From positions 32,871 through 96,870 of the forward strand of contig CAYHJU010000001.1 in NCBI GenBank assembly GCA_964357175.1: a stretch of 64,000 nt of DNA, given 5' to 3'. The stretch comes from an uncultured Candidatus Saccharibacteria bacterium. Its GTDB lineage: Bacteria > Patescibacteriota > Minisyncoccia > GWC2-36-17 > CAYHJU01. Position 1 is the stretch's first letter, and each line of letters begins with the position of its first letter. The notes under the pieces were generated by a model, which was not told the DNA's origin, did no database searches, and saw only the letters and a list, made by a program, of their open reading frames with translations. This document shows, piece after piece, positions 2,269 to 56,747 of the stretch. The translations under genes were made by a program, and so were the position numbers.

Positions 2269-3363
2269 ATGGTTTGGTCTTTATTTGGATTTAGTAAAGA
2301 AAATTATTTGGGCGTAGATTTTGGCGAAAGCTCTATAAAGATAGTTGAATTGGAAGATAGCAAGGGCGCGCCATTTCTTAAAAACTATGCCGTGGCATCT
2401 TTAATTGATGTGCCTGAAAATTTAAATGGCGCACCTTCTCATAAGCCATTTTTCTCTGAAAATCAGTATGCCAAAACCGTGGGATCAATTTTAGATAAAT
2501 TGAACATTAAAGCCAAAAAGGCGTTTTTTTCTTTGCCCATATATCCCAGCTTTTCAACCACCATAGAGATACCGCTAATGTCAGAAAAAGAAATGGATCA
2601 GGCGGTTCCGCTGGAGGCGCGCAAGTATGTGCCGATTCCTCTGAATGAAGTGGTTTTGGATTGGAATTTTTTAGGAAAGACACGAAGTGATTCTACAGAG
2701 AAGATGCGTATTTTTATAGTTGCCGTTCCTAACAACATAGTGCAAAGCTATATAAGTATAGCTCATCAAAACAAATTGAAGGTTGAGGCCATGGAGCTTG
2801 AAACGTTTAGTTCTGCCAGAGCAGTATTAGGCCCTAACGAAGAACGTCCAGTAATGATAGTGGATATTGGAGCAAATTCTACCGATGTGGCCATAAGCTA
2901 TAAGGGGCAGGTGGAAATGAGTCACAATTTTGAGATTTCAGGATTTAACTTTACTTATGCTATAGCTAAAAGTTTAAACATAGATATTAATCGCGCGGAA
3001 CAGCTAAAAAGAAGCGCGGGACTCCTGGGAGGCGGGGGAGAACAAGAGCTTTCTTCCATAATGTTTCCCTTGCTGGATGCCGTCATAGAAGAAATAAGGC
3101 GCGCCGCGGCAAATTATGAACAAAAATATGGCCGCCCCATTAAAAAGGTTATCCTTGCAGGAGGATCTGCCAATCTCAAGGGTTTAATAAATTATTTTGT
3201 GAAACAATTAAATATAGAGGTGGGGTTGGCCAATCCGTTTTTATCAATAAAGTATCAGCCAGCGCTTGAAAAGACGCTTCGAGAACTTGGCCCAGAACTT
3301 GCGGTGGCTTGCGGACTGGCGCTTAAGGGGTTTGCGGCTAAGCGTCAAAAGCAAGAGAAGTGA
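2269..3363 (+). CDS. pilM: type IV pilus assembly protein PilM (actin-like ATPase fold)
   Basis: LGVDFGESSIKIVEL N-terminus and overall PilM/FtsA-like architecture; first gene of a pilMNO-pilB cluster. Confidence 0.8.
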   Translation: MVWSLFGFSKENYLGVDFGESSIKIVELEDSKGAPFLKNYAVASLIDVPENLNGAPSHKPFFSENQYAKTVGSILDKLNIKAKKAFFSLPIYPSFSTTIEIPLMSEKEMDQAVPLEARKYVPIPLNEVVLDWNFLGKTRSDSTEKMRIFIVAVPNNIVQSYISIAHQNKLKVEAMELETFSSARAVLGPNEERPVMIVDIGANSTDVAISYKGQVEMSHNFEISGFNFTYAIAKSLNIDINRAEQLKRSAGLLGGGGEQELSSIMFPLLDAVIEEIRRAAANYEQKYGRPIKKVILAGGSANLKGLINYFVKQLNIEVGLANPFLSIKYQPALEKTLRELGPELAVACGLALKGFAAKRQKQEK

Positions 3364-3465
3364 TCTTGACGCCTTACTGTTTTAATCTTAATTGTGTTAT
3401 AATTAGTATAGATATTAATGGCTAAATATAAGTACTAGATTCTAACTCCTAAATTCTAAATTATT

Positions 3466-3996
3466 ATGATTGACGTTTCACTTATACCTAAAGAGGCACC
3501 AAAATCATTTCCTATAAATAAGCTGTTTTCTTGGATTTCTCTTTTAGTTTTAATTATATCTGTCGTTGCGGGCGGGCTTATTGTCTTTATGCTCATATCT
3601 TCTAAGAATAATTTGGTCCAGCTCAATCAACAACTCCAGGAATTAGATAAAAATATAAATTCTCAACAAGAAACTATTCAGTTTGCCCAATCGGTTTTAG
3701 TAGCCGATCAAATTATTAGTAGCCACAAATACCCCAGCAGACTCATGGATTTTCTGGAGAAAAACACGAATATGTTTATACAGTGGACAAGCTTGAATGT
3801 TGATCTTTCCAACAAAACCGTTGATTTAAATGGTAGGGCACACGACCTTCTGGCTGTGGCTCAACAGATAAAACGCCTGGAAAACTCTAAGGTTGTTTCT
3901 GGTATTAAATTGGGAAGCGTGGCATCAGAAAACAATGGCGTCTCTTTTAAATTGAACTTTTCTTTAGACGGCAGCATTTTGTCTGTTAGGTATTAA
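3466..3996 (+). CDS. pilN: PilN-like bitopic pilus assembly protein
   Basis: Short cytoplasmic N-terminus, single TM segment, coiled-coil periplasmic part; positioned after pilM. Confidence 0.55.
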   Translation: MIDVSLIPKEAPKSFPINKLFSWISLLVLIISVVAGGLIVFMLISSKNNLVQLNQQLQELDKNINSQQETIQFAQSVLVADQIISSHKYPSRLMDFLEKNTNMFIQWTSLNVDLSNKTVDLNGRAHDLLAVAQQIKRLENSKVVSGIKLGSVASENNGVSFKLNFSLDGSILSVRY

Positions 3997-4021
3997 AATA
4001 AATTTTCAATAATTTCAAATT

Positions 4022-4552
4022 ATGCAAAAAATAACAACAGCTATCACAACCCTTGGTCTTGCCGTGATCGTCATTTTTGGGGTTTTGTGGCCAGCATATA
4101 AAATACTGAATAATTTAAAAGGAGAAATAAGTAATATTAATGATGCTATAGCGCAAAAAAATCAAGAGATGGAATCTCTGAAGTTTTTTTCGCAAAGGAT
4201 GAAAGAAATGGATCCGGCTCAAGTGAATCGTATCAATGCGCTGGCTCCTGCGCAAAGCCAGCCAGATCTTATTGCTGAAGTGAACGGCATGGCTTTGGCG
4301 AGCGGCCTGTCCATAAACACATTTAGTGAAACGCCCTTGGAGACTCAGACAGGAGGACCACTAAAGCAGTCGAGAGTAGAGATTTCTTTTAAAAGCGATT
4401 ACGCTAATTTAAAAAGATTTTTAAGTAATATGGAATTGAGCGCTCGGCTCTTTGAGTTGTCTGGCCTGTCTTTGAAAGCCGCGGGCGTTGAATTAGGGAA
4501 GGGCCAGTTGCCTCTTGATGTAAAAACTAATTTTGATATTTATTACAAATAA
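4022..4552 (+). CDS. pilO: PilO-like pilus assembly protein
   Basis: N-terminal TM segment then coiled coil; sits between pilN and pilB. Confidence 0.5.
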   Translation: MQKITTAITTLGLAVIVIFGVLWPAYKILNNLKGEISNINDAIAQKNQEMESLKFFSQRMKEMDPAQVNRINALAPAQSQPDLIAEVNGMALASGLSINTFSETPLETQTGGPLKQSRVEISFKSDYANLKRFLSNMELSARLFELSGLSLKAAGVELGKGQLPLDVKTNFDIYYK

Positions 4553-4565
4553 TTCGAATTTATTT

Positions 4566-4865
4566 ATGCCAAATTCAGAAATTTATAATATTAAAGGTAA
4601 TAGTGTATCGAATTTATTAATAATCCTCGTGATTGCCATAAGTGTGGTAGCGGCAGGAATATTTTTTCTGCCCCAATTAGTAGAATCTTATTTTTCTTAT
4701 GACCCGTCTTTGGTGGTTATAAGCCCAACCCTTTTGTTGCCAAAAAGTGGTGATAAAATTGTATCTAATGAGAGACAGCTAAATGATTTCCAATTGCCAC
4801 AAGGCATACCCCTCAATATAACGGAAAGTATTTTTGGACGAGCCAATCCCTTTGCTCCTTTATAG
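4566..4865 (+). CDS. small membrane protein (PilP-like position)
   Basis: ORF with one TM segment. Start moved to the internal ATG at 4566 to avoid overlapping pilO. Confidence 0.35.
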   Translation: MPNSEIYNIKGNSVSNLLIILVIAISVVAAGIFFLPQLVESYFSYDPSLVVISPTLLLPKSGDKIVSNERQLNDFQLPQGIPLNITESIFGRANPFAPL

Positions 4866-4874
4866 GTATAGTTT

Positions 4875-6617
4875 ATGACTAAAGAAAATAACTTTTTAAA
4901 TTATTTAACAAGCCAGGACAAATTAAGCGAGGCCAATTTAAAATCGGCCAGCGAAGAGGCGTCAAAAAACAGCCAGAATATAGAAGATGTTTTAATAGAA
5001 AAAAAATATTTGTCCGAACAGGAGCTTTATCAGCTTAAGGCTGATTTTTTAAATCTTGAATTAAGGTTTTTTTCAGAAACAGACACCATACCTTTTGACA
5101 TTTTGGCTTTAGTCTCACAAGAAGCGGCGGTCCAATACAAATTTATTCCACTCAATCGCACAGACGAGTATTTGCAGGCGGGAATGGTCCGCCCGGAAGA
5201 TTTTAAATCACAAGAAGCCCTGCACTTTATTGCGGCGCGGCTTGGCTTAAAAACAAAAGTGTTTTTAATAACGCCGCAGAGTTTCAATAACGCGCTGAAG
5301 CAATATCAAAGCTTGACGGGAGAAGTTAGCACTGCATTGGAAAAAATGACAGCCGAGCTTAAAGACGAAGAGATTGCGGATTTTCAGGAAAGTGGAAAAC
5401 AAAAAGACATTTCTTTGGTGCTTGAGGAGGCGCCCATCACAAAGGTTGTGGGGGTTGTGTTAAAGCACGCTGTTGAAGGTAGGGCCTCGGATATTCATAT
5501 TGAGCCGTTTCAGGACAGGATTCGTGTAAGATTTAGAGTAGACGGTGTTTTGTCCACCAGCCTTTTTTTACCCAAGGACGTGCTTTTGCAAATTGTGTCC
5601 CGTATAAAAATATTATCCGGACTGCAAATAGATGAAACTCGCAAGCCACAAGATGGAAGATTTCAAACTAAAATTAATGGCCGCGAGATAGATTTTCGTG
5701 TGTCTGTATTTCCCACTTCAAAAGGAGAAAAGGTGGCCATTCGCGTTTTGGATTCTTTAGTTGGAATTTCCACTTTTCTTGAGCTGGGTCTACAAGGCAG
5801 GAACGCCAAAAAAGTTCTTGAAGGCCTACAAAAACCTTTCGGATTGATAGTTAACACAGGTCCGACTGGTTCGGGCAAGTCTACCACTTTGTATGCCATG
5901 ATGCTCAAGCTCAACCAAGAGGGCGTTAATATAGTCAGCTTGGAAGATCCAGTAGAATATTTGCTTGAGGGCGTAAATCAATCCCAAGTAAGGCCAGAGC
6001 TGGGGTATGATTTTGCTTCAGGCCTTCGAAGTATTTTGCGCCAAGATCCGGACATTATAATGCTCGGAGAGGTGAGGGATAGAGAAACCGCGGGACTGGT
6101 CGTGCACGCCGCTTTGACGGGCCATATCGTTTTATCAACTCTTCACACCAACAATGCCATTGGCGCTATCCCGCGCCTTATAGACATGGGAGTGGAACCG
6201 TTTCTTATCCCGTCTTCGTTAACTATGGTGCTCGCTCAACGTTTAGTTAAAAAGCTGTGTGATTATTGTAAAGCTCCCATAAAGCCAATAGGCGAACTAA
6301 AGGATTTAGTAGAAGAGGCTATGTCGTCTTTTTCCGCGGAAGAATTAAAGGAGTTTGGTGTTGATGCTAAACAGATTTTTGAATCCAAGGGTTGCAAAAA
6401 ATGCGCAGGCAAAGGCACCAGGGGGCGCGTGGCGATTTATGAAATTTTAATGATGACGCCCCAGCTGGAAGAGATAATTTTGACAGAACCTTCCTCAGGT
6501 AAAATTGAGACAGAAGCTAAACGCCAGGGCATGGTTTCTATGAAGCACGATGGTATAATTAAGGCTCTGCAGGGGTTAGTTAGTTTGGAAGAAGTAATGA
6601 GGGTGGTTGAAGAATAA
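4875..6617 (+). CDS. pilB: type IV pilus assembly ATPase PilB (GspE family)
   Basis: Walker A GPTGSGKSTT, Asp box, His box, and a C-terminal tetracysteine motif CDYC...CKKC. Confidence 0.85.
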   Translation: MTKENNFLNYLTSQDKLSEANLKSASEEASKNSQNIEDVLIEKKYLSEQELYQLKADFLNLELRFFSETDTIPFDILALVSQEAAVQYKFIPLNRTDEYLQAGMVRPEDFKSQEALHFIAARLGLKTKVFLITPQSFNNALKQYQSLTGEVSTALEKMTAELKDEEIADFQESGKQKDISLVLEEAPITKVVGVVLKHAVEGRASDIHIEPFQDRIRVRFRVDGVLSTSLFLPKDVLLQIVSRIKILSGLQIDETRKPQDGRFQTKINGREIDFRVSVFPTSKGEKVAIRVLDSLVGISTFLELGLQGRNAKKVLEGLQKPFGLIVNTGPTGSGKSTTLYAMMLKLNQEGVNIVSLEDPVEYLLEGVNQSQVRPELGYDFASGLRSILRQDPDIIMLGEVRDRETAGLVVHAALTGHIVLSTLHTNNAIGAIPRLIDMGVEPFLIPSSLTMVLAQRLVKKLCDYCKAPIKPIGELKDLVEEAMSSFSAEELKEFGVDAKQIFESKGCKKCAGKGTRGRVAIYEILMMTPQLEEIILTEPSSGKIETEAKRQGMVSMKHDGIIKALQGLVSLEEVMRVVEE

Positions 6618-9531: not shown

Positions 9532-10044
9532 ATGATGAACAAAAAAAATAAAGGCTTTACCCTGCTCGAGCTTTTGGTGGTTATCGTTATCATTGGGCTT
9601 GTCTCTACGATAACCCTCACCTTTATTTATATGTCTAAAAATCGCGCTAAAAAATCGCGCATTGTATCCAATTTAGACCAAGTCAGAAAAACGGCCGAAC
9701 TTTTTTATAACGGTAATAATTATAGCTATATGGGCTTGAGTGATGCGCCGGACATATTGATTCTTAGGGAGGATGTGGTTAAGCAGGGTGGTCAGCTAAA
9801 TATTTATCCTAGCGTTGATTCCTATGTGGCTTATAGCGCGTATCCAGGCGCGGAAAACAACCATTATTGGTGTACAGATAGTCAAGGAAACTCAAAGGAT
9901 GTGACGGGCTATCCTTCGGGTAGCTGTAATAGTACGGGGGCCTGCCCTCCGGGCCAGACGAATCCATATGGGCAGTATCGATTTAGATCCGGCTGTGTGC
10001 GCGTTTCAGGATGTGGCACCAGCACATGCTCTTTGCCTTACTAA
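9532..10044 (+). CDS. type IV pilin-like protein (prepilin, class III signal peptide)
   Basis: MMNKKNKG|FTLLELLVVIVIIGL prepilin cleavage/methylation motif; Cys-rich C-terminus. Confidence 0.75.
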   Translation: MMNKKNKGFTLLELLVVIVIIGLVSTITLTFIYMSKNRAKKSRIVSNLDQVRKTAELFYNGNNYSYMGLSDAPDILILREDVVKQGGQLNIYPSVDSYVAYSAYPGAENNHYWCTDSQGNSKDVTGYPSGSCNSTGACPPGQTNPYGQYRFRSGCVRVSGCGTSTCSLPY

Positions 10045-10926: not shown

Positions 10927-11733
10927 ATGCTTATCATAGAATCAATTTTAATATTTTTATTCGGACTTTGTATCGGCAGTTTCTTAAATGTCGTTATTTT
11001 TCGTGTATTGTCAGGAGAAAGCCTGCGTGGTCGCTCGCACTGCCAAAAGTGTCTCAAGACCTTAAGATGGTATGAGCTTTTTCCGCTTGCAAGTTTTGTC
11101 TGGCAAAAAGGCAGATGCCGTTCGTGTCAAGAAAAAATTTCCTGGCAATATCCTTTGGCAGAATTGATTACAGCAGTATTATTTTTGTTAATCTTCCAAC
11201 ATTTTTATGGCAACTGGGCCGAGATGATTTTATGGATTGTGGTCGCATCAGCTTTTGTGGTTTTATTTTTCACGGATTTGAAAGAATATATTTTGCCGGA
11301 TGTTATTGTGATTCCTCTGATTGCCGTTTTATTTTTATACCGCACATTTCAATCTTTTTATCTGGGGAGTTTTGATTTTTTTGCAAATTTTGTCATCGCG
11401 TCCTTTCTAATCGCCTTGCCATTTTTTCTTTTTTATGCGATATCAGGCGGGAGAATGATTCGGACAGGAATATTTAAAATAGAATGGATGGGCATGGGGG
11501 ATTCAAAGCTAATATTTTTGGCAGGTCTTCTTTTGGGTTGGCCCAAAATTTTGATAGCGGTAATGTTCGCGGTGTTTTTAGGGTCTTTGTGGGGAATTTT
11601 GTTGATGTTTTTAAAAAAGTTTACGCTCAAAAGCGCCATGCCTTTTGGACCTTTTATAATTTTAGGCGCGTTTCTTTCTCTGTATTTTGGTGATATAATT
11701 TACGAGTGGTATATCAATTGGCTATTTTTTTAA
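10927..11733 (+). CDS. pilD: prepilin peptidase PilD (A24 family)
   Basis: N-terminal CxxC...CxxC zinc motif, 8 TM segments, conserved GMGDSKL Asp box. Confidence 0.85.
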   Translation: MLIIESILIFLFGLCIGSFLNVVIFRVLSGESLRGRSHCQKCLKTLRWYELFPLASFVWQKGRCRSCQEKISWQYPLAELITAVLFLLIFQHFYGNWAEMILWIVVASAFVVLFFTDLKEYILPDVIVIPLIAVLFLYRTFQSFYLGSFDFFANFVIASFLIALPFFLFYAISGGRMIRTGIFKIEWMGMGDSKLIFLAGLLLGWPKILIAVMFAVFLGSLWGILLMFLKKFTLKSAMPFGPFIILGAFLSLYFGDIIYEWYINWLFF

Positions 11734-11740
11734 ATTTTTA

Positions 11741-12268
11741 ATGGAAAATCCTTTAGATAAAAAGAATATAATGGGGTTCACGCTTGTTGAGCTTGCGGTT
11801 TCTATGCTGATAATTGGTCTTATATCAACTATCGTTTTGACTAATTATAACGCAGGCAGAAAACAGGAAGCCCTAAATCGTTCGGTCCAAAGATTGGCTG
11901 TGGCAATAAGACAGGCGCAAAATTACGCTCTTTTTTCCCGGGTTGGCACAAAATGCAGTACTCCCGCGGGGGGATACGGAATTTATGTGTCTTCTGCCTC
12001 ACAATATGTGATTTTTGGCGACTGTAGTGGAAATCGTTTGTATGATCTTGCCAGTGATGATTTAATCAGCACTATAAAGGTTGAATCCGACGTGCAAATA
12101 TCAAGCGCGTCACTTATATCTATGACGTTTGAGCCGCCAATAGGAAAGTTTTATTACAATGGTTTGGTGCCAACTGTATCCAATACGATTATTTTACAAA
12201 ATTCTTCTGATGTTACTAAACAGAAAATTACAAATATTTCCGCAAATGGGAGCGTGAGCGTGCAGTAA
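11741..12268 (+). CDS. minor pilin / pseudopilin
   Basis: MG|FTLVELAVSMLIIGL prepilin motif. Confidence 0.65.
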   Translation: MENPLDKKNIMGFTLVELAVSMLIIGLISTIVLTNYNAGRKQEALNRSVQRLAVAIRQAQNYALFSRVGTKCSTPAGGYGIYVSSASQYVIFGDCSGNRLYDLASDDLISTIKVESDVQISSASLISMTFEPPIGKFYYNGLVPTVSNTIILQNSSDVTKQKITNISANGSVSVQ

Positions 12269-18334: not shown

Positions 18335-18459
18335 CATAAAAGAATATAGAATCTAGGAGTTAGAATTTAGCAATAGCACAAACGGATTAGAAATCAGAGC
18401 TTGTAAATTTTTTGAAAACTGATAAAATTTTTAGCGTGTAATGCGTGGCATAAAAATAT

Positions 18460-18516
18460 GCGCCCGTAGCTCAGTGGTACCTGCCTGCCGGCAGGCAGGG
18501 AGCAGCTCCCTTTTAT
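18460..18516 (+). pseudogene. truncated 5' copy of tRNA-Lys (positions ~1-37) with a 20-nt palindrome inserted in the D-loop
   Basis: GCGCCCGTAGCTCAGTGGTA[CCTGCCTGCCGGCAGGCAGG]GAGCAGCTCCCTTTTA matches the intact tRNA-Lys at 18779 up to the anticodon loop and then diverges. Even the 2 nt upstream (AT) are shared. Confidence 0.6.
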
Positions 18517-18522
18517 ATAATT

Positions 18523-18768
18523 ATGATTCAATATTACATTTATGCTATAAAGAGTTACAAAGACGGAAGATTATATGTAGGAATAAGTAGAAATCCGGAG
18601 AGTAGATTAATCGAGCACAATTCTGGAATGACAAAATCTACAAAACCTTTCCGACCGTGGAAAATTGTGTTTAAAAGATTTATTGGTGACAGGAAGTCAG
18701 CTAGGATTGAGGAAAAGAAATTAAAGTCAGGATATGGTAAAGAGTTCTTAAAAAAATTGACTAGATAA
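18523..18768 (+). CDS. stand-alone GIY-YIG nuclease domain protein (81 aa)
   Basis: YYIYAIKS...GRLYVGIS...R...EHN motif layout of the GIY-YIG fold. Stop is 10 nt before the intact tRNA-Lys. Confidence 0.75.
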   Translation: MIQYYIYAIKSYKDGRLYVGISRNPESRLIEHNSGMTKSTKPFRPWKIVFKRFIGDRKSARIEEKKLKSGYGKEFLKKLTR

Positions 18769-18778
18769 AAACAAACAT

Positions 18779-18854
18779 GCGCCCGTAGCTCAGTTGGTAG
18801 AGCAGCTCCCTTTTAAGGAGATTGTCGTAGGTTCGATTCCTACCGGGCGCACCA
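18779..18854 (+). tRNA. tRNA-Lys (anticodon UUU), CCA encoded
   Basis: Cloverleaf folded by hand: acceptor GCGCCCG/CGGGCGC, D-arm GCTCAGTTGGTAGAGC, anticodon loop CTTTTAA, T-arm GTAGGTTCGATTCCTAC, ACCA. Confidence 0.85.
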
Positions 18855-19165: not shown

Positions 19166-19945
19166 ATGAGTAAAGACGTTGTAAGCCGTAGCCTGTCGGT
19201 GCATAAAGAGCACGAAGTGCTCCTGAAGCTCGAGGCCGCAGGTCTCACCGACGAACTCGCCCAGAAAGTCATCGGCTCCAAGGACAACGATCTTGCCACG
19301 AAGGTGGTGAGGTTGATTCAGAACGGTGGCTTTGAGGCCACCTCCTCCCAGAAGCGTGCCCGTGAGATCATGGGCAATAATTTCTTCGGCGTCGAAGAGA
19401 ATTTTAAACACTTCGGCATATACTACGCTATGGGTCCAGATGCCCGAAAGGCTCTTTCCGAAGTTCCCTTCACCGAAGAAGTTCTACAGGCGCACAAGGA
19501 CACTCACGTCCTCGTCGCAACCTTCCCACTTTCCATTCTCGACATTCGTAGCAAAGCTCCACGTAGCCTCTTCTACCGTCACGAAGACGCCTGGTGCAAC
19601 AGCCAGCGCTTTGCCAAGGACAAGGGAGAAGTCGCCTGGCATCTGGTCAGAAAAACCCCAGTTCAGAACTCCACCAACAGAACCTGGTCGGATCAGCAGT
19701 CTCTCCTTTCCCAGGATGAAGAAACTCCCACGGCCCGTGTCCTGACCTACACCATCATCGGTCACTTCCTGGCAACTGGAGAACGCCTGTTCGAACACAT
19801 CTATGTCCGTACATCGTCGGTGGTTTCGGACGACGACGGGGGCAGCGTTGGCTACTTCGGCTCCGGTGGTCTGCGCGTCGACAGCCGCTGGGATGACGGT
19901 CGCAGCGGCGATCTGGGTGTCTCGTCCTCCCGGAAGTCCAACTGA
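19166..19945 (+). CDS. hypothetical protein encoded in an anomalously GC-rich (~55 % by eye) segment
   Basis: 259-aa ORF preceded by a strong SD (ACAGGAGG, 7 nt before ATG); GC-rich third codon positions; no family recognised. Confidence 0.5.
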   Translation: MSKDVVSRSLSVHKEHEVLLKLEAAGLTDELAQKVIGSKDNDLATKVVRLIQNGGFEATSSQKRAREIMGNNFFGVEENFKHFGIYYAMGPDARKALSEVPFTEEVLQAHKDTHVLVATFPLSILDIRSKAPRSLFYRHEDAWCNSQRFAKDKGEVAWHLVRKTPVQNSTNRTWSDQQSLLSQDEETPTARVLTYTIIGHFLATGERLFEHIYVRTSSVVSDDDGGSVGYFGSGGLRVDSRWDDGRSGDLGVSSSRKSN

Positions 19946-19996
19946 ACATTGATCCGCCAGCTGGCGGATTGAAAATTTGATTCTTTTGAATCATTG

Positions 19997-20035
19997 AGCC
20001 CTCGGCGTAAAAACGCCGAGGGCTTTTCTTTTTAT
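19997..20035 (+). terminator. strong rho-independent terminator
   Basis: AGCCCTCGGCGtaaaaaCGCCGAGGGCT perfect 11-bp GC stem followed by TTTCTTTTTAT. Confidence 0.75.
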
Positions 20036-20381
20036 AAATATAGTAGGTATAATTTATACATCCCGCTAATGCAGGCGCGACTACGGTTTCGTCTCGCGGG
20101 ATATATAATTTTGCCGCATTATCGCTTATTACGCACAAAAACTAAACAGCGCATATTTAAAAAATTTAAAAATCGTGTGGGAGAATATAAGTCAGGTAAA
20201 ATTAGCAGGGATAAACTTGAACAATCGTTACAGTCCTATCTGGGCACTCTGTCTCACGCTGATGCTTATGACCTAAGCGAAGATTTGAAAAATCAGGTTT
20301 GGTTTTCAGGTTAAACGATTTTAATCTGTTTGGTCGCCATCGTGATTTTACTTTTGAGACAAGCCAGCTCATGTTGGAAAA

Positions 20382-20410
20382 TTGACACCTTTGTTGATTC
20401 GCGATAAAAT
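20382..20410 (+). promoter_or_regulatory. sigma70-like promoter of the thr operon (TTGACA-N17-TAAAAT)
   Basis: TTGACA at 20382-87 and TAAAAT at 20405-10; the leader-peptide ORF starts 10 nt downstream. Confidence 0.5.
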
Positions 20411-20419
20411 GATATTAAT

Positions 20420-20482
20420 ATGACAAATAAACAAATTTTTACCACCACTACTACAACGACTACAACCACTTTTAGTGGCTGA
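20420..20482 (+). CDS. thrL: thr operon leader peptide (Thr-codon rich), MTNKQIFTTTTTTTTTTFSG
   Basis: 20-codon ORF containing 11 Thr codons, 10 consecutive (ACC ACC ACT ACT ACA ACG ACT ACA ACC ACT). It sits between the promoter and a terminator hairpin, immediately upstream of the aspartokinase-homoserine dehydrogenase gene. Confidence 0.75.
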   Translation: MTNKQIFTTTTTTTTTTFSG

Positions 20483-20521
20483 GGTTTGTTGTTGAGATAT
20501 TTAAATATTATAAACACAACA

Positions 20522-20548
20522 GACCTTAGCCAAGAGGTCAATTTTTTT
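20522..20548 (+). terminator. attenuator terminator of the thr leader
   Basis: GACCTTagccAAGAGGTC hairpin followed by AATTTTTTT. The upstream GGTTTGTTG...CAACAGACC pairing can act as the alternative antiterminator and overlaps the terminator stem. Confidence 0.6.
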
Positions 20549-20561
20549 ACTTATTAAAATT

Positions 20562-23054
20562 ATGAAAATTCTAAAATTCGGCGGCTCATCTGTCGCTAAT
20601 GCGGAAAATATCAATAAAGTTATTCAAATTGTAATGCAATCACCCAAAAGGCGAAACGATATCGTCGTTGTGTCGGCTCTTGGCGGTGTTACGGACGATC
20701 TTATAAGGCTTGCCACTCTTGCCTCAAAAGGAGAAAGCGATTACGGATTACTATTTAAAAATCTTTGCAAGAAACACAACGAGGTCATAAAAAAATTAAT
20801 TAAGACTAAGAATCAAAAACAGGCGCTTGAAGAAGCGAAGAAAAAATATGACGAATTAGAAAAAATATTACAAGGTATTTTTCTTATAAAAGAACTTTCA
20901 TTGCGTTCACTGGATACGGTCATGAGTTTTGGTGAGCAATTATCAGCGCAGATCATTGGCGAAGCGATAAATAGCCGAGGTGTTGCGTGTAAATTTGTAG
21001 ATGCCCGAAATCTTATCAAAACGGATGACAATTTTGGTTCGGCGAATGTAGATGCCTTAAAAACACATAAGCTCATTTCAAATTATTTTAAGAAAAGCTC
21101 CATGCTTTCCATAATGGGCGGATTTATCGCCTCAAATAGCTCGGGAATAGTTACCACGCTTGGTCGGGGCGGTTCTGACTACAGCGCGTCTTTGATAGGG
21201 GCGGCGCTCAACGCCGCTGTGATCGAAATTTGGACTGATGTTGATGGTGTAATGACAGCAGATCCCCGTAAGGTAGAAAAGGCGTTTCCTCTTGCAGAAA
21301 TATCCTATGAGGAAGCAGGAGAGCTTGCGCATTTTGGCGCAAAAGTCATACATCCAAAAACTATGAAGCCGGCGCGATTAAAAAACATTCCTATTCTTAT
21401 TAAAAACACATTCAATCCGCAGGCTATAGGCACTAAAATAGGCAAGGGGAAGATCGGGCAGGCCTTCGCCTCGCCGATCCGCATCACGCCGAAGGTTTCG
21501 GTAGGGCGAGAGTGGCTTCGGCCATGCGAGCAGGATTTTCTCATCAAAGGAATATCTTCATTGAGCAATGTTTCTTTATTGCGTCTGCAATCTAATAATG
21601 GCAAAAACATAGGTGAAATTACGGCACAATTATTTGACGCATTGTGTAGATTTGATATTGAGGTTTTGCTCACTACCCAGTCATCGCACGAACAAGCACT
21701 TTCCATAGCGTTAAGCAGTAAGGAGGCTCAAAGGGCAAAAAATATTATTGAGCGGGCGTTTGAATTGGAGTTGCAAACACGACAAATGCTGCCTGTTTCT
21801 ATAAAAGAAAATCTTTCAATAGTCGCCATTGTGGGTAAACAAATGAAGGGTGTGCCAGGCATTTCGGGAAGACTATTTAACACTTTGGGAAATAATAAAA
21901 TTAATATAGTTGCTATCGCTCAAGGGTCGTCTGAATTAAACGTGTCGGCTGTAATTGGCGCAGAAGATGAAACAAGAGCGCTTCAAGTGATTCACGAGGC
22001 ATTTTTTGGCGCGGCTGATGAGACTGTCAGTCTTTTTCTTGTGGGGACAGGATTGATTGGATCAACATTGCTTACGCAAATAAAAAAACAAGAATCACAA
22101 ATTCGTCTGCGTGGTTTGGCAAACAGCCGATTTATGTTATTTGATGGGCAGGGCATTTCATTAGAAAGTTGGGAAAAACTTTTGCCGCAAGGAAAATCAA
22201 TGAACGTACAGAATTTTGTTGCCCAAATGACTGAATTGAATTTACCAAGAAGCGTGTTTGTGGATTGTACTGCCAGCGATGACATTGCTTCCTTGTATGA
22301 AAAAATTATCAGTGCCGGTATTGCCATTGTTACTCCAAACAAAAAGGCAAACTCCGGACCGTTTATGAGGTATCAAAGATTAAGAAATTTAACTAAAAAA
22401 AATCACACACCATTTCTTTATCAAACAAATGTAGGCGCTGGACTCCCGATTATTCACAGCATACAAAATCTTATTTCAAGTGGAGACGAAATACTCAAAA
22501 TAGAAGGCGTGCTTTCCGGAACATTGAGTTACATATTCAATACATTTTCAAAGAGCGATAAATTATTTAGTCAAATTGTTTCTGATGCGCAAAACAAGGG
22601 ATATACCGAGCCAGATCCTCGAGATGATTTGGGCGGCATGGATGTTGCTCGTAAAATTCTTATTCTGGCACGAGAAATTGGCCTAAAAATGGAAATGGGG
22701 CAAGTGCGCATTGAACAATTGCTGTCAAAGGAGTGTCTAGGGGCTAATTCAGTTGATAAATTTTTTACTGCGCTTAAAAAACTCGATAGTAGTTTTGAAA
22801 AAAGAAAAAGACAAGCGCAAAAAAATAACAAAACATTACGCTACATAGCATCACTACAAAAAGGCGGGGCGAGAATTTCTTTGCAAGAAATTGGTCAAGA
22901 TCATCCATTTTTCCATCTTGAGGGCAATGACAACATTGTTTCCATAACAACAAAACGATATAGCGCAACTCCGCTAGTTATTAAAGGGCCTGGAGCCGGA
23001 GCCGAAGTAACTGCCGGTGGCGTATTAGCTGGCGTTCTTAGTATATTTAACTAA
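20562..23054 (+). CDS. thrA: bifunctional aspartokinase / homoserine dehydrogenase
   Basis: N-terminal amino-acid kinase domain (KFGGSSV), ACT domains, C-terminal homoserine dehydrogenase; 830 aa. Confidence 0.9.
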   Translation: MKILKFGGSSVANAENINKVIQIVMQSPKRRNDIVVVSALGGVTDDLIRLATLASKGESDYGLLFKNLCKKHNEVIKKLIKTKNQKQALEEAKKKYDELEKILQGIFLIKELSLRSLDTVMSFGEQLSAQIIGEAINSRGVACKFVDARNLIKTDDNFGSANVDALKTHKLISNYFKKSSMLSIMGGFIASNSSGIVTTLGRGGSDYSASLIGAALNAAVIEIWTDVDGVMTADPRKVEKAFPLAEISYEEAGELAHFGAKVIHPKTMKPARLKNIPILIKNTFNPQAIGTKIGKGKIGQAFASPIRITPKVSVGREWLRPCEQDFLIKGISSLSNVSLLRLQSNNGKNIGEITAQLFDALCRFDIEVLLTTQSSHEQALSIALSSKEAQRAKNIIERAFELELQTRQMLPVSIKENLSIVAIVGKQMKGVPGISGRLFNTLGNNKINIVAIAQGSSELNVSAVIGAEDETRALQVIHEAFFGAADETVSLFLVGTGLIGSTLLTQIKKQESQIRLRGLANSRFMLFDGQGISLESWEKLLPQGKSMNVQNFVAQMTELNLPRSVFVDCTASDDIASLYEKIISAGIAIVTPNKKANSGPFMRYQRLRNLTKKNHTPFLYQTNVGAGLPIIHSIQNLISSGDEILKIEGVLSGTLSYIFNTFSKSDKLFSQIVSDAQNKGYTEPDPRDDLGGMDVARKILILAREIGLKMEMGQVRIEQLLSKECLGANSVDKFFTALKKLDSSFEKRKRQAQKNNKTLRYIASLQKGGARISLQEIGQDHPFFHLEGNDNIVSITTKRYSATPLVIKGPGAGAEVTAGGVLAGVLSIFN

Positions 23055-23060
23055 TTTTTT

Positions 23061-24152
23061 ATGGCAAAAATAAGCAATAAAATTCCAGTCGGCATACTTG
23101 GCGCAACCGGTATGGTTGGACAGCGTTTTATTTCGTTGCTGAAAAATCATCCCTACTTTGAAGTGGCGTGTCTTGCCGCTTCAGAGAGATCAGCGGGTAA
23201 AATATATAAAGAAGCAGTTTTGGGGCGATGGGCGCAAAAAGAATCTATACCACGCAACGTGAGCATGATGATGGTATATTCTATTGAAAATGATATAGAC
23301 ACCATTGCGCAAAAAGCCCGTTTTGTATTTTCAGCAATAGACGCAGAAAAAGAATTTATTAAAAAAATAGAAGAGGCATATGCCTCACGCGGTCTCCCTG
23401 TCGTTTCTAACAACTCGGCTCACAGATGGACAGAAGATGTGCCGATGATTATGCCTGAAATAAATCCCCAGCATCTCAATATCATTAACGCGCAAAGAAA
23501 AAAACGTGGCTGGACGACAGGATTTATTATCACCAAACCAAATTGTTCAATTCAATCTTATGTCCCACTACTTCATGCGTGGAAAAACTTCAAGCCCCAG
23601 AAAGTAATCGTCTCCACGTATCAGGCAATTTCTGGTGCGGGCAAAACATTTAAAACTTGGCCGGAAATGATTGACAATGTTATTCCATATATTGGTGGGG
23701 AAGAAGAAAAGTCAGAAAAAGAACCATCAAAAATTTGGGCAAATATTAAAGAGGGTAAATTTGAAATGGCAAACACGCCACAAATTTCAGCAAATTGCAT
23801 ACGGGTTCCCGTTTCGGACGGACACATGGCGGCAATCAATATACAATTTGCGAAAAAGGCAGACAAGAAACAACTCATTGAAGCGCTAAAAAAATTTAAA
23901 AATCCTTTGGACGTCTTAAATTTACCTTCTGCTCCGAAACCGTTTTTAACTTATTTTGAGGAAAACAATCGGCCACAAACACGTCTTGATAGAGATTTAC
24001 ACGGTGGTATGGGAATCAGTGTTGGCCGTTTAAGAGAGGATTCCGTTTTGAGCTGGAAGTGTGTTGCTCTATCACATAACACTCTACGGGGCGCCGCAGG
24101 TGGTAGCGTGCTCAATGCAGAACTGTTGGTAAAGCTGGGTTATATAAAGTAG
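23061..24152 (+). CDS. asd: aspartate-semialdehyde dehydrogenase
   Basis: GILGATGMVGQR Rossmann motif, active-site Cys context (NCS), C-terminal dimerisation domain. Confidence 0.9.
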   Translation: MAKISNKIPVGILGATGMVGQRFISLLKNHPYFEVACLAASERSAGKIYKEAVLGRWAQKESIPRNVSMMMVYSIENDIDTIAQKARFVFSAIDAEKEFIKKIEEAYASRGLPVVSNNSAHRWTEDVPMIMPEINPQHLNIINAQRKKRGWTTGFIITKPNCSIQSYVPLLHAWKNFKPQKVIVSTYQAISGAGKTFKTWPEMIDNVIPYIGGEEEKSEKEPSKIWANIKEGKFEMANTPQISANCIRVPVSDGHMAAINIQFAKKADKKQLIEALKKFKNPLDVLNLPSAPKPFLTYFEENNRPQTRLDRDLHGGMGISVGRLREDSVLSWKCVALSHNTLRGAAGGSVLNAELLVKLGYIK

Positions 24153-24157
24153 GGAAT

Positions 24158-24829
24158 ATGAAATTATCACAAAAACAATTTGATCAATTGTTGCAAAAAA
24201 ATAAATTGGTACTGAGCTTAATCGGCATGTCTAATATCGGCAAAACCCATTGGTCAAAAAAACTTACCAAGATTAATTTTAAGCACATCAATTGTGATGA
24301 TCTTGTTGAAGCAAAACTTGCCCTTGAGCTTAAAGCGTGCGGGCATTCTGGCATTAAGGACGTGTCTTTGTGGATGGGCCAGCCTTACGACAAAAGATTC
24401 CTCGTTTGCCAACAAAAATATTTGAAATTTGAAAAAGAGGTAATGAAACAAATATTTATGCAGATTGAGAGTAAAAAAGGACAAAATATTGTTATTGATA
24501 CGACCGGTAGTTTTGTGCACGCTGGCACTAGCGCGTGTTCTCAATTAAAAAAACATACGCTGGTGATCTATATTGAGGCGAGGGATTCTGTGAAGGAGAA
24601 AATGTTTGAACGATATATCAAAAAACCAAAGCCCGTTGTATTTGGAGATGTTTTTGCTCCAAAAAAGGGAGAAACAAATAAGCGGGCTCTTAAAAGATGT
24701 TATTTGAAATTGCTTGATCTGCGCAGTAATCTATATGATCAATGCGCGGATATTAGTATCTCTTGTGAAATTATCAGCCAAGATATGGACGCCAAACAAT
24801 TTATTTCACTAATAAGAAAATCTTTATGA
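24158..24829 (+). CDS. P-loop kinase of the shikimate-kinase/NMP-kinase-like fold (function unknown; occupies the thrB position)
   Basis: Walker A GMSNIGKT followed by a CDDLVE Asp motif, ~220 aa. Stop overlaps the thrC start (ATGA), so it is translationally coupled within thrA-asd-X-thrC. Confidence 0.55.
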   Translation: MKLSQKQFDQLLQKNKLVLSLIGMSNIGKTHWSKKLTKINFKHINCDDLVEAKLALELKACGHSGIKDVSLWMGQPYDKRFLVCQQKYLKFEKEVMKQIFMQIESKKGQNIVIDTTGSFVHAGTSACSQLKKHTLVIYIEARDSVKEKMFERYIKKPKPVVFGDVFAPKKGETNKRALKRCYLKLLDLRSNLYDQCADISISCEIISQDMDAKQFISLIRKSL

Positions 24830-26124
24830 AATTTTATAGCACGAAACACAGTGGCCCAGAAGTTGAGCTGAAAGAGGCTGTAATGAGCGGCCTTGCTCCG
24901 GATGGGGGCCTATATATGCCGAGCGCTATACCAAAGCTTGAGAGTGATTTTTTTGAGCAGGCAGACAAAATGTCTTTTATGGACATCGCTTTTGAGGTGG
25001 GCGAGCGTTTTTTTGCTCCGGATGTGCCGGAGGGCATTCTGCGCCCTATCATCAATGAGTCGTTTAATTTCGAAGTGCCTCTTGTGGAATTGGATAAAAA
25101 TCTTCACGTGCTGGAATTATTTCATGGCCCTACACTTGCGTTTAAAGATTTTGGCGCTCGTTTTATGGCGCGCTTGCTCGGTTATTTTGCGCGACAATCC
25201 CAAAAGAAAATAACGATACTTGTTGCGACATCAGGAGATACAGGAGGCGCGGTCGCGCATGGATTTTTTAATGTAGACGGCATTCAGGTGGTTATTTTGT
25301 ATCCCAGTAAAAAAGTTAGCGCTTTACAAGAAAAACAATTAACAACTATGGGCGGAAACATCAGGGCGCTTGAAGTTCAGGGAAATTTTGATGATTGTCA
25401 ACAAATGGCGAAACAGGCCTTTCTTGACGAAGATCTAAAACAAGCCATGATGCTGGTCTCGGCAAACTCTATTAACATCGCGCGCTTGTTGCCTCAATCA
25501 TTCTATTTTGTTTATCTTTGCGCAAAATTAAACAAACTGGGCAAACCAATCGTAGCTTCTGTTCCTAGTGGCAATTTTGGCAATCTGAGCGCCGGACTTA
25601 TTGCCAAAAAGATGGGCGCGCCGATTCATAAATTTGTCGCCTCAACAAATCGAAATGACATAGTGCCACAATATTTAAAAACAGGCCATTTTGAGGCCAG
25701 ATCGTCTGTTTCCACCATTTCTAATGCCATGGATGTCGGTAATCCAAGCAATTTTGCAAGGATGCTGGAATTATACGACTCTAATGTTGAGAAAATGAAG
25801 CATGACGTATACGGTGTAAGTTTTTCGGACACACAGACAAAAGAAGCGATGGCAGAAGTGTTCAAGAAGTATAATTATATAATGGATCCTCACGGGGCAG
25901 TCGCGTATTTGGGCCTTTGCGATTATCTAAAAAGCTCCGATGAATCTTCGGGAGTGTTTTTGGAAACCGCTCATCCCGCAAAATTTTCTGATATTGTAGA
26001 GCAAGCCATTGGCGTGGCACCACCCATGCTAGACAGGCTCAAGGCATATCTTAGTCGTGAAAAACAATCAACTTTGATAGAGAATAAATTTTCTGACCTA
26101 AAAGAATTTCTTCTGAATCAATAA
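24826..26124 (+). CDS. thrC: threonine synthase
   Basis: PLP-lysine motif HGPTLAFKDFG; fold-type II PLP enzyme; 432 aa. Confidence 0.9.
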   Translation: MKFYSTKHSGPEVELKEAVMSGLAPDGGLYMPSAIPKLESDFFEQADKMSFMDIAFEVGERFFAPDVPEGILRPIINESFNFEVPLVELDKNLHVLELFHGPTLAFKDFGARFMARLLGYFARQSQKKITILVATSGDTGGAVAHGFFNVDGIQVVILYPSKKVSALQEKQLTTMGGNIRALEVQGNFDDCQQMAKQAFLDEDLKQAMMLVSANSINIARLLPQSFYFVYLCAKLNKLGKPIVASVPSGNFGNLSAGLIAKKMGAPIHKFVASTNRNDIVPQYLKTGHFEARSSVSTISNAMDVGNPSNFARMLELYDSNVEKMKHDVYGVSFSDTQTKEAMAEVFKKYNYIMDPHGAVAYLGLCDYLKSSDESSGVFLETAHPAKFSDIVEQAIGVAPPMLDRLKAYLSREKQSTLIENKFSDLKEFLLNQ

Positions 26125-26304
26125 ATACGATGCGAGAAAATATGATCGGCTGGTTTTGTGCATAATTTTTTGTTAAAATATGTTTGAATGTGATTGTAAG
26201 GTCGCATTAAATTCTGACAGACCATTTGCAACATTTTTAAAAATCTAATAATATAGGAGCAGACGACAGCTCCTTAAAATTTAAAAATCAAGCGGAGAAA
26301 AACC

Positions 26305-27027
26305 ATGACAAACGAAAAACCAAGCGTAAAAATAGTCGTAATGTTTATGGGAAAACCGGGGGCCGGAAAAGGCACCCAGGCAGATTCTTTGGTTGAAAAA
26401 TATGGACTTGTACATTTTAATACCGGTGATGAAATTCGTCACAGAGTTTACAGCCCTCAAAACGAAGAAGATGAAAAAGAGCGTGATCTTTACAATTCTG
26501 GTCAATTAAACAGTTTTCCGTGGGTAGCAAAACTGGTAACGGAAAATTCTCACAAATATTTTGAAGAAGGTGGGGGGTTGGTTTTTTCTGGATCTCCTAG
26601 GTCTTTGTATGAAGCTGAAATATTGATTCCTCAACTAATTAGTGATTATGGAAAAGAAAGCGTTGTGGTTATTCTGCTTGACGTAGATGATGAGGACTCG
26701 GTAATCAGAAATTCTAAGCGCATTACTTGTGACAAGTGCGGGTTTACCATGGGACTAACTCAAGCCATGGAAGATGGGATTGAGCCGACACCAACACAGT
26801 GTCCAAAATGCGGCGGCATGCTAATCAAAAGAGTTTTAGACAGCGAGGAAAAAATTCGCAACGAACGTTTGCCTGCCTACAAAAAAAACACCGAGCCGGT
26901 GCTGGACTATATGCGTCAGCAGGGAATTTTGCGAGAAGTAGATGGTCGTCCATCTCAAGAAACCGTTTATCTCAAGGTTTTGGAAATCGTTTCTCCCATG
27001 GCAGAAAAGTTCGAGCTTAAGGATTAA
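26305..27027 (+). CDS. adk: adenylate kinase (zinc-lid type)
   Basis: GKPGAGKGTQ P-loop and lid CDKCG...CPKCGG. Confidence 0.9.
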   Translation: MTNEKPSVKIVVMFMGKPGAGKGTQADSLVEKYGLVHFNTGDEIRHRVYSPQNEEDEKERDLYNSGQLNSFPWVAKLVTENSHKYFEEGGGLVFSGSPRSLYEAEILIPQLISDYGKESVVVILLDVDDEDSVIRNSKRITCDKCGFTMGLTQAMEDGIEPTPTQCPKCGGMLIKRVLDSEEKIRNERLPAYKKNTEPVLDYMRQQGILREVDGRPSQETVYLKVLEIVSPMAEKFELKD

Positions 27028-48186: not shown

Positions 48187-48565
48187 GGTGGAGATGGAGG
48201 GAATTGAACCCTCGTCCAAAAATGATGGACAACCGATTTTAGAAGCTTGTTCCCATTAGTTTTGTACATTGCGTCTTTAAATAGGAAAAAATGTGCGCAA
48301 CGCTTGCCTTTGTTTGTTTAGAGCCAACAATTAAGGCAAATGATTGGCTCGAACCTGTTAATATAACACCGCTTGAACTTAACAGGTATGGGTTAAAGCG
48401 ATGGCTTTCACGCTAAATTAGGCAAAAGCAAGCACGGGAGTAGCAAAAGCTACGCGCGCTTTTGAGAATAAGTTTGCACTTATTGGTGATCAACTTTTTA
48501 CGAAGTGGTTGATCGGCTTCGGCTTCAACGATTGCTTGCTATTTCTGTCGAATCAAAACATCCCC
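48187..48565 (-). ncRNA. ssrA: tmRNA (SsrA); predicted tag peptide (A)NLFSKARVAFATPVLAFA
   Basis: Minus strand 5' GGGGAUGUUUUGAUUCGACAG... (tmRNA consensus GGGG..G.UUCGAC). 3' end ...GAGGGUUCAAUUCCCUCCAUCUCCACC gives a tRNA-Ala-like T-arm plus acceptor with G3.U. Internal ORF GCA AAC UUA ... GCU UUU GCC UAA begins with the GCA resume codon. smpB is adjacent. Confidence 0.7.
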
Positions 48566-54959: not shown

Positions 54960-55050
54960 TGAAATTGGATTAAAAAATAAAGCGTCCCGCAAGATGGGGC
55001 GCTTTTTACTTTTAAATGGCGCGAGGACGTTAAAAATATTTACGCGATGC

Positions 55051-55079
55051 TTGACAAAGCTTTTGAATTGGTGTAGCGT
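55051..55079 (+). promoter_or_regulatory. sigma70-like promoter TTGACA-N17-TAGCGT
   Basis: TTGACA at 55051-56 and TGTAGCGT at 55072-79; followed by GAGGAGGGTCAAG 8 nt before the ATG at 55106. Confidence 0.4.
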
Positions 55080-55105
55080 GGACATTAAGAGAGGAGGGTC
55101 AAGTT

Positions 55106-55483
55106 ATGTGGCGTCCAGAAGCTTCTAAAGGTTGGCCAACAGAACGGGAAGTAATGCCGGAAGAGGTTTTGGAGCAGGGCAAGAGTCTCGTGGGCCAGAT
55201 GGTCAATCTTGGCTCAATTCTGAGCCCTCATTATGTCGCCATTATGAACTTCATTCCCAAAAGCGGTGAAGCGGTGAGAGGTTCTGACGGTTCAATTCAG
55301 TTCCTTGAAAAACCCAAGTTCGCGGTGGTCTCTGCCAAGACCGGATGTGGACATCCGGTAGATCCAGAGGACATCAAGCTTCTCACCGATATGCGTCATG
55401 ATTTGAATCATGTTGACGATTTCCGTAGGGCTGCGCGTCTCATGCTGTACAATCCGCCGAACACAGGCCTTAACGGATGCTAA
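55106..55483 (+). CDS. hypothetical protein (125 aa) in GC-elevated DNA
   Basis: ORF with strong SD, own promoter, and terminator hairpin GGTCCCGAtttaCTCGGGAC+T-run at 55489-55520. Confidence 0.45.
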   Translation: MWRPEASKGWPTEREVMPEEVLEQGKSLVGQMVNLGSILSPHYVAIMNFIPKSGEAVRGSDGSIQFLEKPKFAVVSAKTGCGHPVDPEDIKLLTDMRHDLNHVDDFRRAARLMLYNPPNTGLNGC

Positions 55484-55555
55484 AATCTTTGGTCCCGATT
55501 TACTCGGGACTTTTTCTTTTTAAAAACCAAAATAAAAAACCCGCACAATGCGGGT

Positions 55556-56230: not shown

Positions 56231-56468
56231 AATTTCCTCCGAGCTTATTAAAGAGCTACTTATGCCTTACTCTAATTTAAATTATATGTAAGTCAAGCTG
56301 AAAGATTAGAAAAATTTGAGGGATGTGGATCTAAATGGTGTTGTCGCAAAAAAGGATATATGTTTAAATTTTTGGTTTTGATATTAGTTGTTTTGTTTGT
56401 TTTTGTTTTCTTTTCATAAATTTTAAAAATATGGTAAAATAATCGTATAGAACATAGCAATTATAAAT

Positions 56469-56747
56469 ATGTCAAAAAAAGCAATTTATCTATCAATCGC
56501 GGTCGTTTCGTTGGTTGTTTTGATAACTCTGGGGTATTTTGGTTGGGTAAAATGGAAGGAATATAGATTATCGCCAGAAGATAAACTTTTAAATAGTGCT
56601 GGGGAGTCCGCAGACAAAATAACTGAAAGCGCGTCCAAAGGTGTATTGCCGCCAATTCAAGTAAATCCATTGGACAGCAAGCCAGACATTAATCCTGCCG
56701 ACAAGGCCAACCCGTTTAAAGATATAAAAACTAATCCCTTCGACTAG
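56469..56747 (+). CDS. small bitopic membrane protein
   Basis: N-terminal TM helix AIYLSIAVVSLVVLITLGYFGW; preceded by extended -10 TGGTAAAAT (56428-36). Confidence 0.4.
   Translation: MSKKAIYLSIAVVSLVVLITLGYFGWVKWKEYRLSPEDKLLNSAGESADKITESASKGVLPPIQVNPLDSKPDINPADKANPFKDIKTNPFD

Follow-up and report, generated by a model that had tools for sequence, protein, structure and literature searches.

A predicted ribosome-mediated threonine attenuator, probably with a leaderless leader peptide, upstream of thrA in a Candidate Phyla Radiation genome

Bacteria of the Candidate Phyla Radiation (CPR), also called Patescibacteria, are usually described as being without amino-acid biosynthesis, and their gene regulation is barely known. 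The 64,000-nucleotide stretch of contig CAYHJU010000001.1 analysed here (the window) carries a threonine-rich open reading frame (ORF) between a promoter and thrA, and this locus raises the question whether a CPR organism controls threonine synthesis by attenuation. A first-pass annotation of the same DNA had described the region as a textbook threonine attenuator. Based on the analysis of the window and of related loci, we consider it very probable that the element attenuates transcription by way of a translating ribosome, in response to charged tRNA-Thr, and so governs the genes thrA, asd, a kinase gene and thrC. We infer from the DNA where transcription starts, that the leader is translated and that the operon responds to threonine. 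The features of the element are the following, in window coordinates:

20382..20410, + strand: sigma-70-type promoter, TTGACA (20382-20387), 17-nt spacer, TAAAAT (20405-20410), matching the consensus at 11 of 12 positions
20420..20482, + strand: thrL-like leader peptide ORF, MTNKQIFTTTTTTTTTTFSG and stop, 20 codons; the ATG is 9 nt past the -10 box and has no Shine-Dalgarno (SD) sequence
20441..20470, + strand: putative sensing codons, 10 Thr (ACC ACC ACT ACT ACA ACG ACT ACA ACC ACT), with all four ACN codons present
20448..20496, + strand: predicted hairpin 1:2, Thr codons with the G/U-rich segment 2 (including the UGA stop), -14.3 kcal/mol in the nascent RNA
20468..20538, + strand: predicted antiterminator 2:3, ACUUUU..UGGCUGAGGUUUGUUGUUG with ACAACAGACCUUAGCCA+AGAGGU, the minimum free energy (MFE) fold
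20522..20548, + strand: predicted intrinsic terminator 3:4, GACCUU-AGCCAA-GAGGUC, AA, U7; 6-bp stem, 6-nt loop, -7.9 kcal/mol

The promoter and the 20-codon leader with its 11 Thr codons are both present where the first-pass annotation had seen them, and the promoter is the top-scoring promoter-like site within 19900-26400. Ten of the 11 Thr codons are consecutive, and the ORF lies upstream of thrA-asd-kinase-thrC. When all six frames of the whole window were searched for homopolymeric amino-acid runs of at least 7 residues, only this T10 run and an antisense V10 run were found. The latter belongs to the antisense ORF 20311-20541 (- strand), opposite the Thr codons, and corresponds to the valine run that had been noticed earlier in the automated ORF track. 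No SD motif was found in the 9 nt between the -10 box and the leader ATG. The UGA stop codon of the leader occupies 20480-20482 and lies within segment 2, which takes part in two of the predicted helices.

In the predicted folds the leader RNA of the window has the four-segment layout of classical attenuators. The free transcript (20411-20561) was predicted to form a single long hairpin at 20468-20538 with a free energy of -29.6 kcal/mol, compared to -15.8 +/- 2.8 kcal/mol for shuffles of the same segment (z = -4.96), none of which, out of 200, folded as well. The 5' arm of this hairpin spans the end of the leader ORF together with its UGA, and as the 3' arm holds both terminator arms, the hairpin can be identified as the antiterminator (2:3). 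It uses positions 20516-20538, that is the 5' arm, the loop and the 3' arm of the terminator except for the last base, and the two structures are thus mutually exclusive. The terminator hairpin itself extends from 20522 to 20539, with its 3' arm at 20534-20539, and is followed by the U7 tract at 20542-20548 and, 13 nt further on, by the thrA ATG. Between the leader ORF and this hairpin, the sequence is G/U-rich at first and then forms an A/U-rich loop. From the alternative pairings that had been proposed before, GGTTTGTTG (20483-20491) indeed pairs with CAACAGACC (20515-20523) in the predicted fold, whereas the 3' arm of the terminator reads GAGGTC and not AAGGTC. Likewise, the antiterminator competes with the terminator as had been claimed, but it is much longer than in that description, covering 20468-20538 and including the UGA stop. 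Hairpin 1:2 (20448-20496) had not been described at all; according to the folding it is a protector or pause hairpin, which would form when the leader is untranslated. Terminator-like sites are found 15 times in 19900-26400 versus 6.7 +/- 2.5 times in shuffles, and intrinsic terminators look to be used in this genome.

These parts would work together as follows. Transcription would start from TTGACA-17-TAAAAT, with the RNA beginning at the leader AUG or 1-4 nt before it, and the 20 codons of the leader would be translated as a leaderless or near-leaderless ORF. With Thr-tRNA in plentiful supply, the ribosome would pass the ten Thr codons and reach the UGA at 20480. Because this stop codon is inside segment 2, the footprint of the ribosome would mask that segment, upon which segment 3 would pair with segment 4, the terminator would form and RNA polymerase would halt 13 nt before thrA. 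With Thr-tRNA scarce, the ribosome would stall in about the first seven Thr codons and leave segment 2 exposed, and the 2:3 antiterminator would then engulf both terminator arms and let transcription enter thrA. If the leader were not translated at all, hairpin 1:2 would form, 3:4 would be permitted and termination would follow, as in the standard model.

The effect of a ribosome on these folds was modelled by keeping all bases unpaired between the 5' end and a point 12 nt past the A-site codon; this footprint is assumed, on the basis of what is generally known about the protection of RNA by ribosomes. With the mask at the stop codon, the terminator was predicted in all ten leaders (that of the window and those of nine homologues). 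When the mask was placed on Thr codons in the early or middle part of the run, eight of them gave the antiterminator in place of the terminator. The window leader gave the antiterminator and no terminator with the A site at every Thr position, and in most homologues the terminator returned when the stall fell on the last two or three Thr codons. Both conformations, which the first-pass annotation had suggested to fold, are therefore energetically plausible and switch as expected under the modelled ribosome footprint.

The nine homologues come from a clade of related thrA genes. A search of species-representative genomes with the window thrA gave no match closer than approximately 51% identity, the matches being from the FCB (Fibrobacteres-Chlorobi-Bacteroidetes) group and other phyla. 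A clade of approximately 45 proteins with 53-89% identity was found in metagenome contigs and a collection of 5.8 billion proteins, some of them labelled Candidatus Levybacteria or Candidatus Kerfeldbacteria. Upstream DNA was taken from 13 loci of this clade, leaving out L161 and L162, which are from the window's own organism. Nine of the 13 (thrA 57-86% identical), including two labelled Levybacteria and Kerfeldbacteria, share the promoter, the Thr-rich ORF and the three helices with the window. The expectation that relatives retaining thrA should also keep the leader is borne out by these nine loci.

All ten leader loci have a TTGACA-17-TAnnnT promoter and a hairpin directly before a U5-U9 tract. 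The leader ORFs of the nine relatives are MTNKQIFTTTTTTTTIFGG, MMSRLLQTTTTTTTTTSGG, MKDKSIQTTTTTTTTTPGG, MINRQLQSTTTMTTTTSGG, MIDRSIQITTTTTTTTSGG, MAGKLLSTLSALATTVTTTTTTTSGG, MTTTFRLTTTTTTTTTHKW.., MYKGIITTLTTILTPNG and MKNVYITTLTTIITPAG; those of L166 and L171 are Thr/Ile-rich and the other leaders are Thr-rich. Common to the leaders are the segments GGCUGA(c)GUUUGUUGU, ACCUCAGCC, ACAACcGACCUCAGCC and GAGGUCGG, the last followed by U5-9. The ATG of the leader ORF is invariant and an in-frame stop is found in 10 of 10 loci, while the N-termini vary (MTNKQIF, MMSRLLQ, MKDKSIQ, MINRQLQ, MIDRSIQ, MAGKLLSTLSALA) with no stop codons gained. The lengths of the ORFs differ by 3 nt and 21 nt, both multiples of 3, and the third positions of the ACN codons are variable. 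The invariant ATG, the open N-termini, the 3- and 21-nt indels and the ACN variation together indicate that selection acts on the leader ORF at the coding level. An insertion of 1 nt in L169 shifts the stop 15 nt downstream, yet the stop is still inside segment 2. The helices are kept as well: across the cells of the 10-sequence alignment, pairing amounts to 92.6% for 1:2, 95.9% for 2:3 and 93.3% for 3:4, compared to 29-55%, 22-52% and 20-55%, respectively, in slid controls with the helix partners shifted by 1-3 alignment columns. Promoter, Thr ORF, embedded stop, exclusive 2:3 and 3:4 pairings and U-tract are thus all present and conserved, and the earlier claim of ribosome-mediated attenuation is upheld.

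The distance from the -10 hexamer to the leader ATG is 7-9 nt in eight of the ten loci, 12 nt in L171 and 14 nt in L169. Such a short distance implies a 5' untranslated region of about 0-4 nt, with no space for an SD sequence. The promoter geometry, from which the transcription start is derived, therefore suggests that the leader peptide is leaderless or near-leaderless. Most genes in the window have no SD sequence and A/T-rich upstream regions, a TATAAT is located 6-8 nt before the ATG at several of them (10927, 36700, 37336), and the few genes with a strong SD cluster at 19166, 41025 and 53088-56869. This pattern suggests leaderless mRNAs in the organism, and together with the probable leaderless start of the leader it offers a testable handle on translation initiation in the CPR. 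In the passages of PMC4007540 that concern Deinococcus deserti, leaderless leader peptides are documented with starts mapped by differential RNA sequencing, and for 14 of these a role in the transcription attenuation of amino-acid and tRNA-synthetase genes is predicted. The window leader resembles these in being a probable leaderless leader peptide, its putative start deduced from the promoter geometry. It differs from them in belonging to another phylum, and the same D. deserti passages contain no thr example (PMC4007540).

We also compared the element with known RNA families. A gathering-level Rfam scan of the window and the nine related loci returned only tRNAs, the tmRNA (transfer-messenger RNA) and one RT-14 RNA, and the T-box and amino-acid riboswitch models gave no match in 20250-20650, whether with gathering thresholds or with E values up to 10. 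In a permissive scan, RF00506 (Thr_leader) aligned at full length and in the right register, with 14.7 bits (E = 3.4) for the window and a top bit score of 23.9 for L083, and this was the only biologically sensible weak Rfam match. Rfam thus misses the element, and the alignment of ten sequences with its model could serve as the seed of a new family or to extend an existing one.

Several observations weigh against attenuation by charged tRNA-Thr in the form proposed here, and some of them concern the window copy itself. Among all ten terminators, that of the window is the weakest (-7.9 compared to -9.9 to -17.8 kcal/mol), with one G.U pair in the stem and an AA spacer before the U7 tract, and it is without the two basal C-G pairs of most relatives (CCGACCUC...GAGGUCGG). 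The antiterminator, at -29.6 kcal/mol, outweighs 1:2 and 3:4 together, at approximately -22 kcal/mol. Others concern the family. L083 and L169, which have strong terminators, retain these at most stall positions in the equilibrium model, and a purely thermodynamic switch was rejected on account of these two loci. Because the real decision is kinetic, we read their misfit as a limit of equilibrium folding. In four clade loci (thrA 53-66% identical) there is no functional leader: it is missing from L165, L167 and L170, and L172 has lost the leader ORF and kept the terminator. The element is therefore dispensable. Changes on both sides of a pair number only 1, 0 and 1 in helices 1:2, 2:3 and 3:4, and the covariation in 1:2 and 2:3 is equalled by shuffles of these ten highly conserved sequences. 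The near absence of covariation is explained by the high conservation of the ten leaders, and since each segment has two partners and one of them also encodes Thr, few compensatory changes are expected. The structural support for the helices is conservation and energetics, not covariation. Finally, neither the window nor L083 reaches the Thr_leader gathering threshold of 55 bits, and by the criterion of Rfam the leader is consequently not a member of that family.

The weak terminator raises the possibility that the window copy is a decaying relic, mostly read through, with the operon effectively constitutive in this genome. The lost basal pairs, the G.U pair and the AA spacer would all agree with such a decay, the MFE fold of the free RNA is the antiterminator, and decay does occur in the leader family, as L172 has lost its ORF. 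However, the window has the longest pure Thr run of the set (10), an intact ATG, stop and U7 and all three helices. Its closest relative L081 shares the 6-bp stem and is also intact, and in every case with segment 2 masked, folding still predicts the terminator. We therefore regard a relic as unlikely, while judging from the folding energies that the window copy may be leaky. The word textbook, used for it in the first-pass annotation, is too strong for a copy with the weakest terminator of its family.

The conservation of the ORF bears on a second alternative, in which the element acts only as RNA, the ACN repeats are kept for pairing with segment 2, the ORF is untranslated and a protein, a small molecule or a small RNA does the switching. 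The Thr-codon region lies in the conserved hairpin 1:2, so that pairing alone would constrain the codons, and there is no SD sequence before the leader ATG. The latter is, however, the rule in the window's genome, and pairing does not account for the invariant ATG and the in-frame stop of all ten loci, nor for N-terminal codons that lie outside the hairpin and vary yet remain open, with indels of 3 and 21 nt. Moreover, the encoded amino acid is the end product of the operon, the position of the stop codon inside segment 2 fits the ribosome model, and no riboswitch or T-box family matched. This makes an RNA-only element very improbable. Hardly credible is a control through Rho or mRNA stability, where leader translation would affect thrA by polarity and not by an intrinsic terminator: the weak hairpin of the window could be insufficient alone, but a hairpin with U5-U9 is kept in 10 of 10 loci and also in the decayed L172, it competes precisely with the antiterminator, and no Rho utilisation site turned up, though none was searched for.

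Attenuation by a leader-translating ribosome, as favoured here, would act on four co-directional and closely packed genes:

20562..23054, + strand: thrA, bifunctional aspartokinase/homoserine dehydrogenase, 830 aa; Pfam AA_kinase, ACT_9, NAD_binding_3, Homoserine_dh
23061..24152, + strand: asd, aspartate-semialdehyde dehydrogenase, 363 aa; Pfam Semialdhyde_dh, Semialdhyde_dhC
24158..24829, + strand: P-loop, shikimate-kinase-like kinase, 223 aa, candidate homoserine kinase; weak SKI and NF040667 matches
24826..26124, + strand: thrC, threonine synthase, 432 aa, its start overlapping the kinase stop by 4 nt; Pfam Thr_synth_N, PALP, THR4_C

The third of these is a homoserine kinase only by tentative annotation. 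Against NCBIfam NF040667, the model for the Desulfovibrio-type shikimate-kinase-like homoserine kinase, it scored 38 bits over residues 19-60 only and did not reach the cutoff of 197 bits, and a sequence search of the PDB with it gave nothing meaningful. Over its full length it shares 47% identity with the C-terminal domain of P0120, a protein of 1067 aa in which the kinase-like domain is fused to an aspartokinase-homoserine dehydrogenase. A P-loop kinase gene (197-223 aa) is also located between asd and thrC in L163, L164, L166, L169, L171 and L172. The fusion and the conserved operon slot suggest that the 223-aa protein is a homoserine kinase, and it may represent a candidate non-orthologous family of this enzyme. 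[quoted passage not shown] If the prediction is correct, the operon encodes all steps from aspartate to threonine.

Two other loci differ in this part. In L161 (Hain_H41 R1, another assembly of the same organism), asd is annotated at 5500-6591 as a pair of genes (153 and 161 aa), unlike the window, where it is intact as one 363-aa ORF (23061-24152); the split reflects either an error of assembly or variation within the population. L165, from a Levybacteria metagenome-assembled genome (MAG), has a leaderless-type thrA start at 4926-5003, TTGACA-17-TACACT-7-GTG, with a kinase-like gene that is divergent.

How far the leader extends beyond this clade was assessed with a covariance model built from the ten leaders, with 1:2 and 3:4 as structure. 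It scored 71-139 bits for the CPR set and 21-44 bits for other loci. The weaker matches are placed precisely in front of thrA, and the loci concerned are labelled Bacteroidetes, Rikenellaceae or Saccharibacteria or are metagenome contigs with no label. In an alignment of four of them, GGCUGAAG is common to L010 and L087, and the terminator element AACCGGCUUCA...GAGCCGGUUUUUU occurs in every one. Thr-rich mini-ORFs were found 55-117 nt upstream of thrA in approximately 13 of approximately 135 more distant loci, with ..VYTTTTTP, ..FTTSTTSTP and ..LQTTTTTMLGCG as examples in Bacteroidota-labelled loci, whose matches to the covariance model score 31-44 bits; a looser filter flagged approximately 16 distant loci, a few of them unconvincing. 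Outside the clade, the CPR thrA is closest to thrA of the FCB group, at approximately 50% identity. The model scores and the distant mini-ORFs indicate that the CPR leaders are a tight sub-family of a wider group of thrA leaders shared with the FCB group. The region 3870-3987 of L172 scored 35 bits against the same model despite its lost ORF.

Candidate thr leader-peptide attenuators were reportedly predicted in Bacteroidetes/Chlorobi and other non-proteobacterial groups by Vitreschak et al. in 2004 (FEMS Microbiol Lett 234:357, reference 8 of PMC1262725). Compared to the Bacteroidetes-type thr leaders, the pure Thr runs of the CPR set are longer, and its promoter is of the sigma-70 type (TTGACA/TAnnnT). 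In E. coli, thrL is a short leader ORF that mixes Thr and Ile codons upstream of the thrABC operon. The window element is similar to it in having a short Thr-rich leader ORF upstream of thrA, a stop codon in the segment that competes with the terminator, and a 1:2, 2:3, 3:4 layout with an intrinsic terminator just before thrA. In contrast to thrL, its Thr run is pure and free of Ile (only L166 and L171 mix both), and its leader has no SD sequence, with the -10 box 9 nt from the ATG, and is probably leaderless. The operon differs too, being thrA-asd-(SKI-like kinase)-thrC and not thrABC.

The assignment of the window to the CPR, already suspected from the DNA, is supported by several independent MAG labels. 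Proteins identical or at least 90% identical to those of the window are labelled by NCBI as from Patescibacteria group or Parcubacteria group bacterium MAGs, and the Levybacteria and Kerfeldbacteria labels among the thrA relatives agree with this. The window thrA is also found on contigs from the Hainich groundwater well H41. In a search of an open-access library, no publication was found that connects Patescibacteria, CPR or Parcubacteria with leader peptides or transcription attenuation. The mechanism is classical, and the new points are the CPR lineage, an initiation that is likely to be leaderless, the lack of the element in Rfam and a compact, possibly mobile cassette. The gain is therefore in taxonomic range and annotation and not in principle. 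It is a classic cis-regulatory mechanism, clear and conserved in the CPR, over a predicted complete threonine pathway, and for the host cells it would imply transcription-translation coupling, intrinsic terminators and monitoring of tRNA-Thr charge.

The surroundings of the operon look like those of a genomic island. Near-identical leaders occur in different flanking contexts, and tRNA genes or tRNA ends adjoin the thr operon upstream in the window, L081, L166 and L171, with a tRNA also in L082. Tentatively, and with the balance somewhat against it, the promoter, the leaderless Thr leader, the attenuator and thrA-asd-kinase-thrC could be viewed as a candidate mobile Asp-to-Thr cassette that moved among Parcubacteria-type bacteria, Kerfeldbacteria and Levybacteria, and ultimately to or from the FCB group, often landing by tRNA genes or transposases. 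If this were true, ultra-small and supposedly auxotrophic CPR cells could gain regulated amino-acid prototrophy, together with coupled transcription-translation sensing from leaderless mRNAs.

Several further features were observed around these operons. In L082 the same pair of tRNA-Ala and tRNA-Val is present on both sides of the thr genes (5551-5711 and 9656-9814). In L164, from a Kerfeldbacteria MAG, two transposase genes are located upstream (2909-4784) and a resolvase downstream (10968-11777) of the operon. In the window, positions 18459-18516 hold the 5' half of a tRNA-Lys with a hairpin insert of 21 nt (cctgcctgccggcaggcaggg); next come a GIY-YIG homing-endonuclease-like ORF (18523-18768) and an intact tRNA-Lys(UUU) at 18779-18854, and L081 has at 420-520 a tRNA-Lys and then a tRNA-like copy with two hairpins like the tRNA-Lys insert. 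Closer to the thr promoter, a 259-aa ORF (19166-19945) has 54-57% G+C compared to approximately 39% for the genome, a strong AGGAGG SD sequence and no Pfam or PHROG match. Behind it lie a strong terminator (19996-20025) and an 81-aa ORF (20069-20314) that matches a fragment of a reverse-transcriptase PHROG. L081 does not have the block 19166-20314 between its tRNA-Lys and thr promoter. A diversity-generating retroelement made up of these two ORFs was considered and rejected, as no template/variable-type repeat was found. Elsewhere in the window, the tmRNA at 48187-48565 (- strand) has the predicted tag peptide ANLFSKARVAFATPVLAFA, ending in AFA; common endings of tmRNA tags are LAA or VAA.

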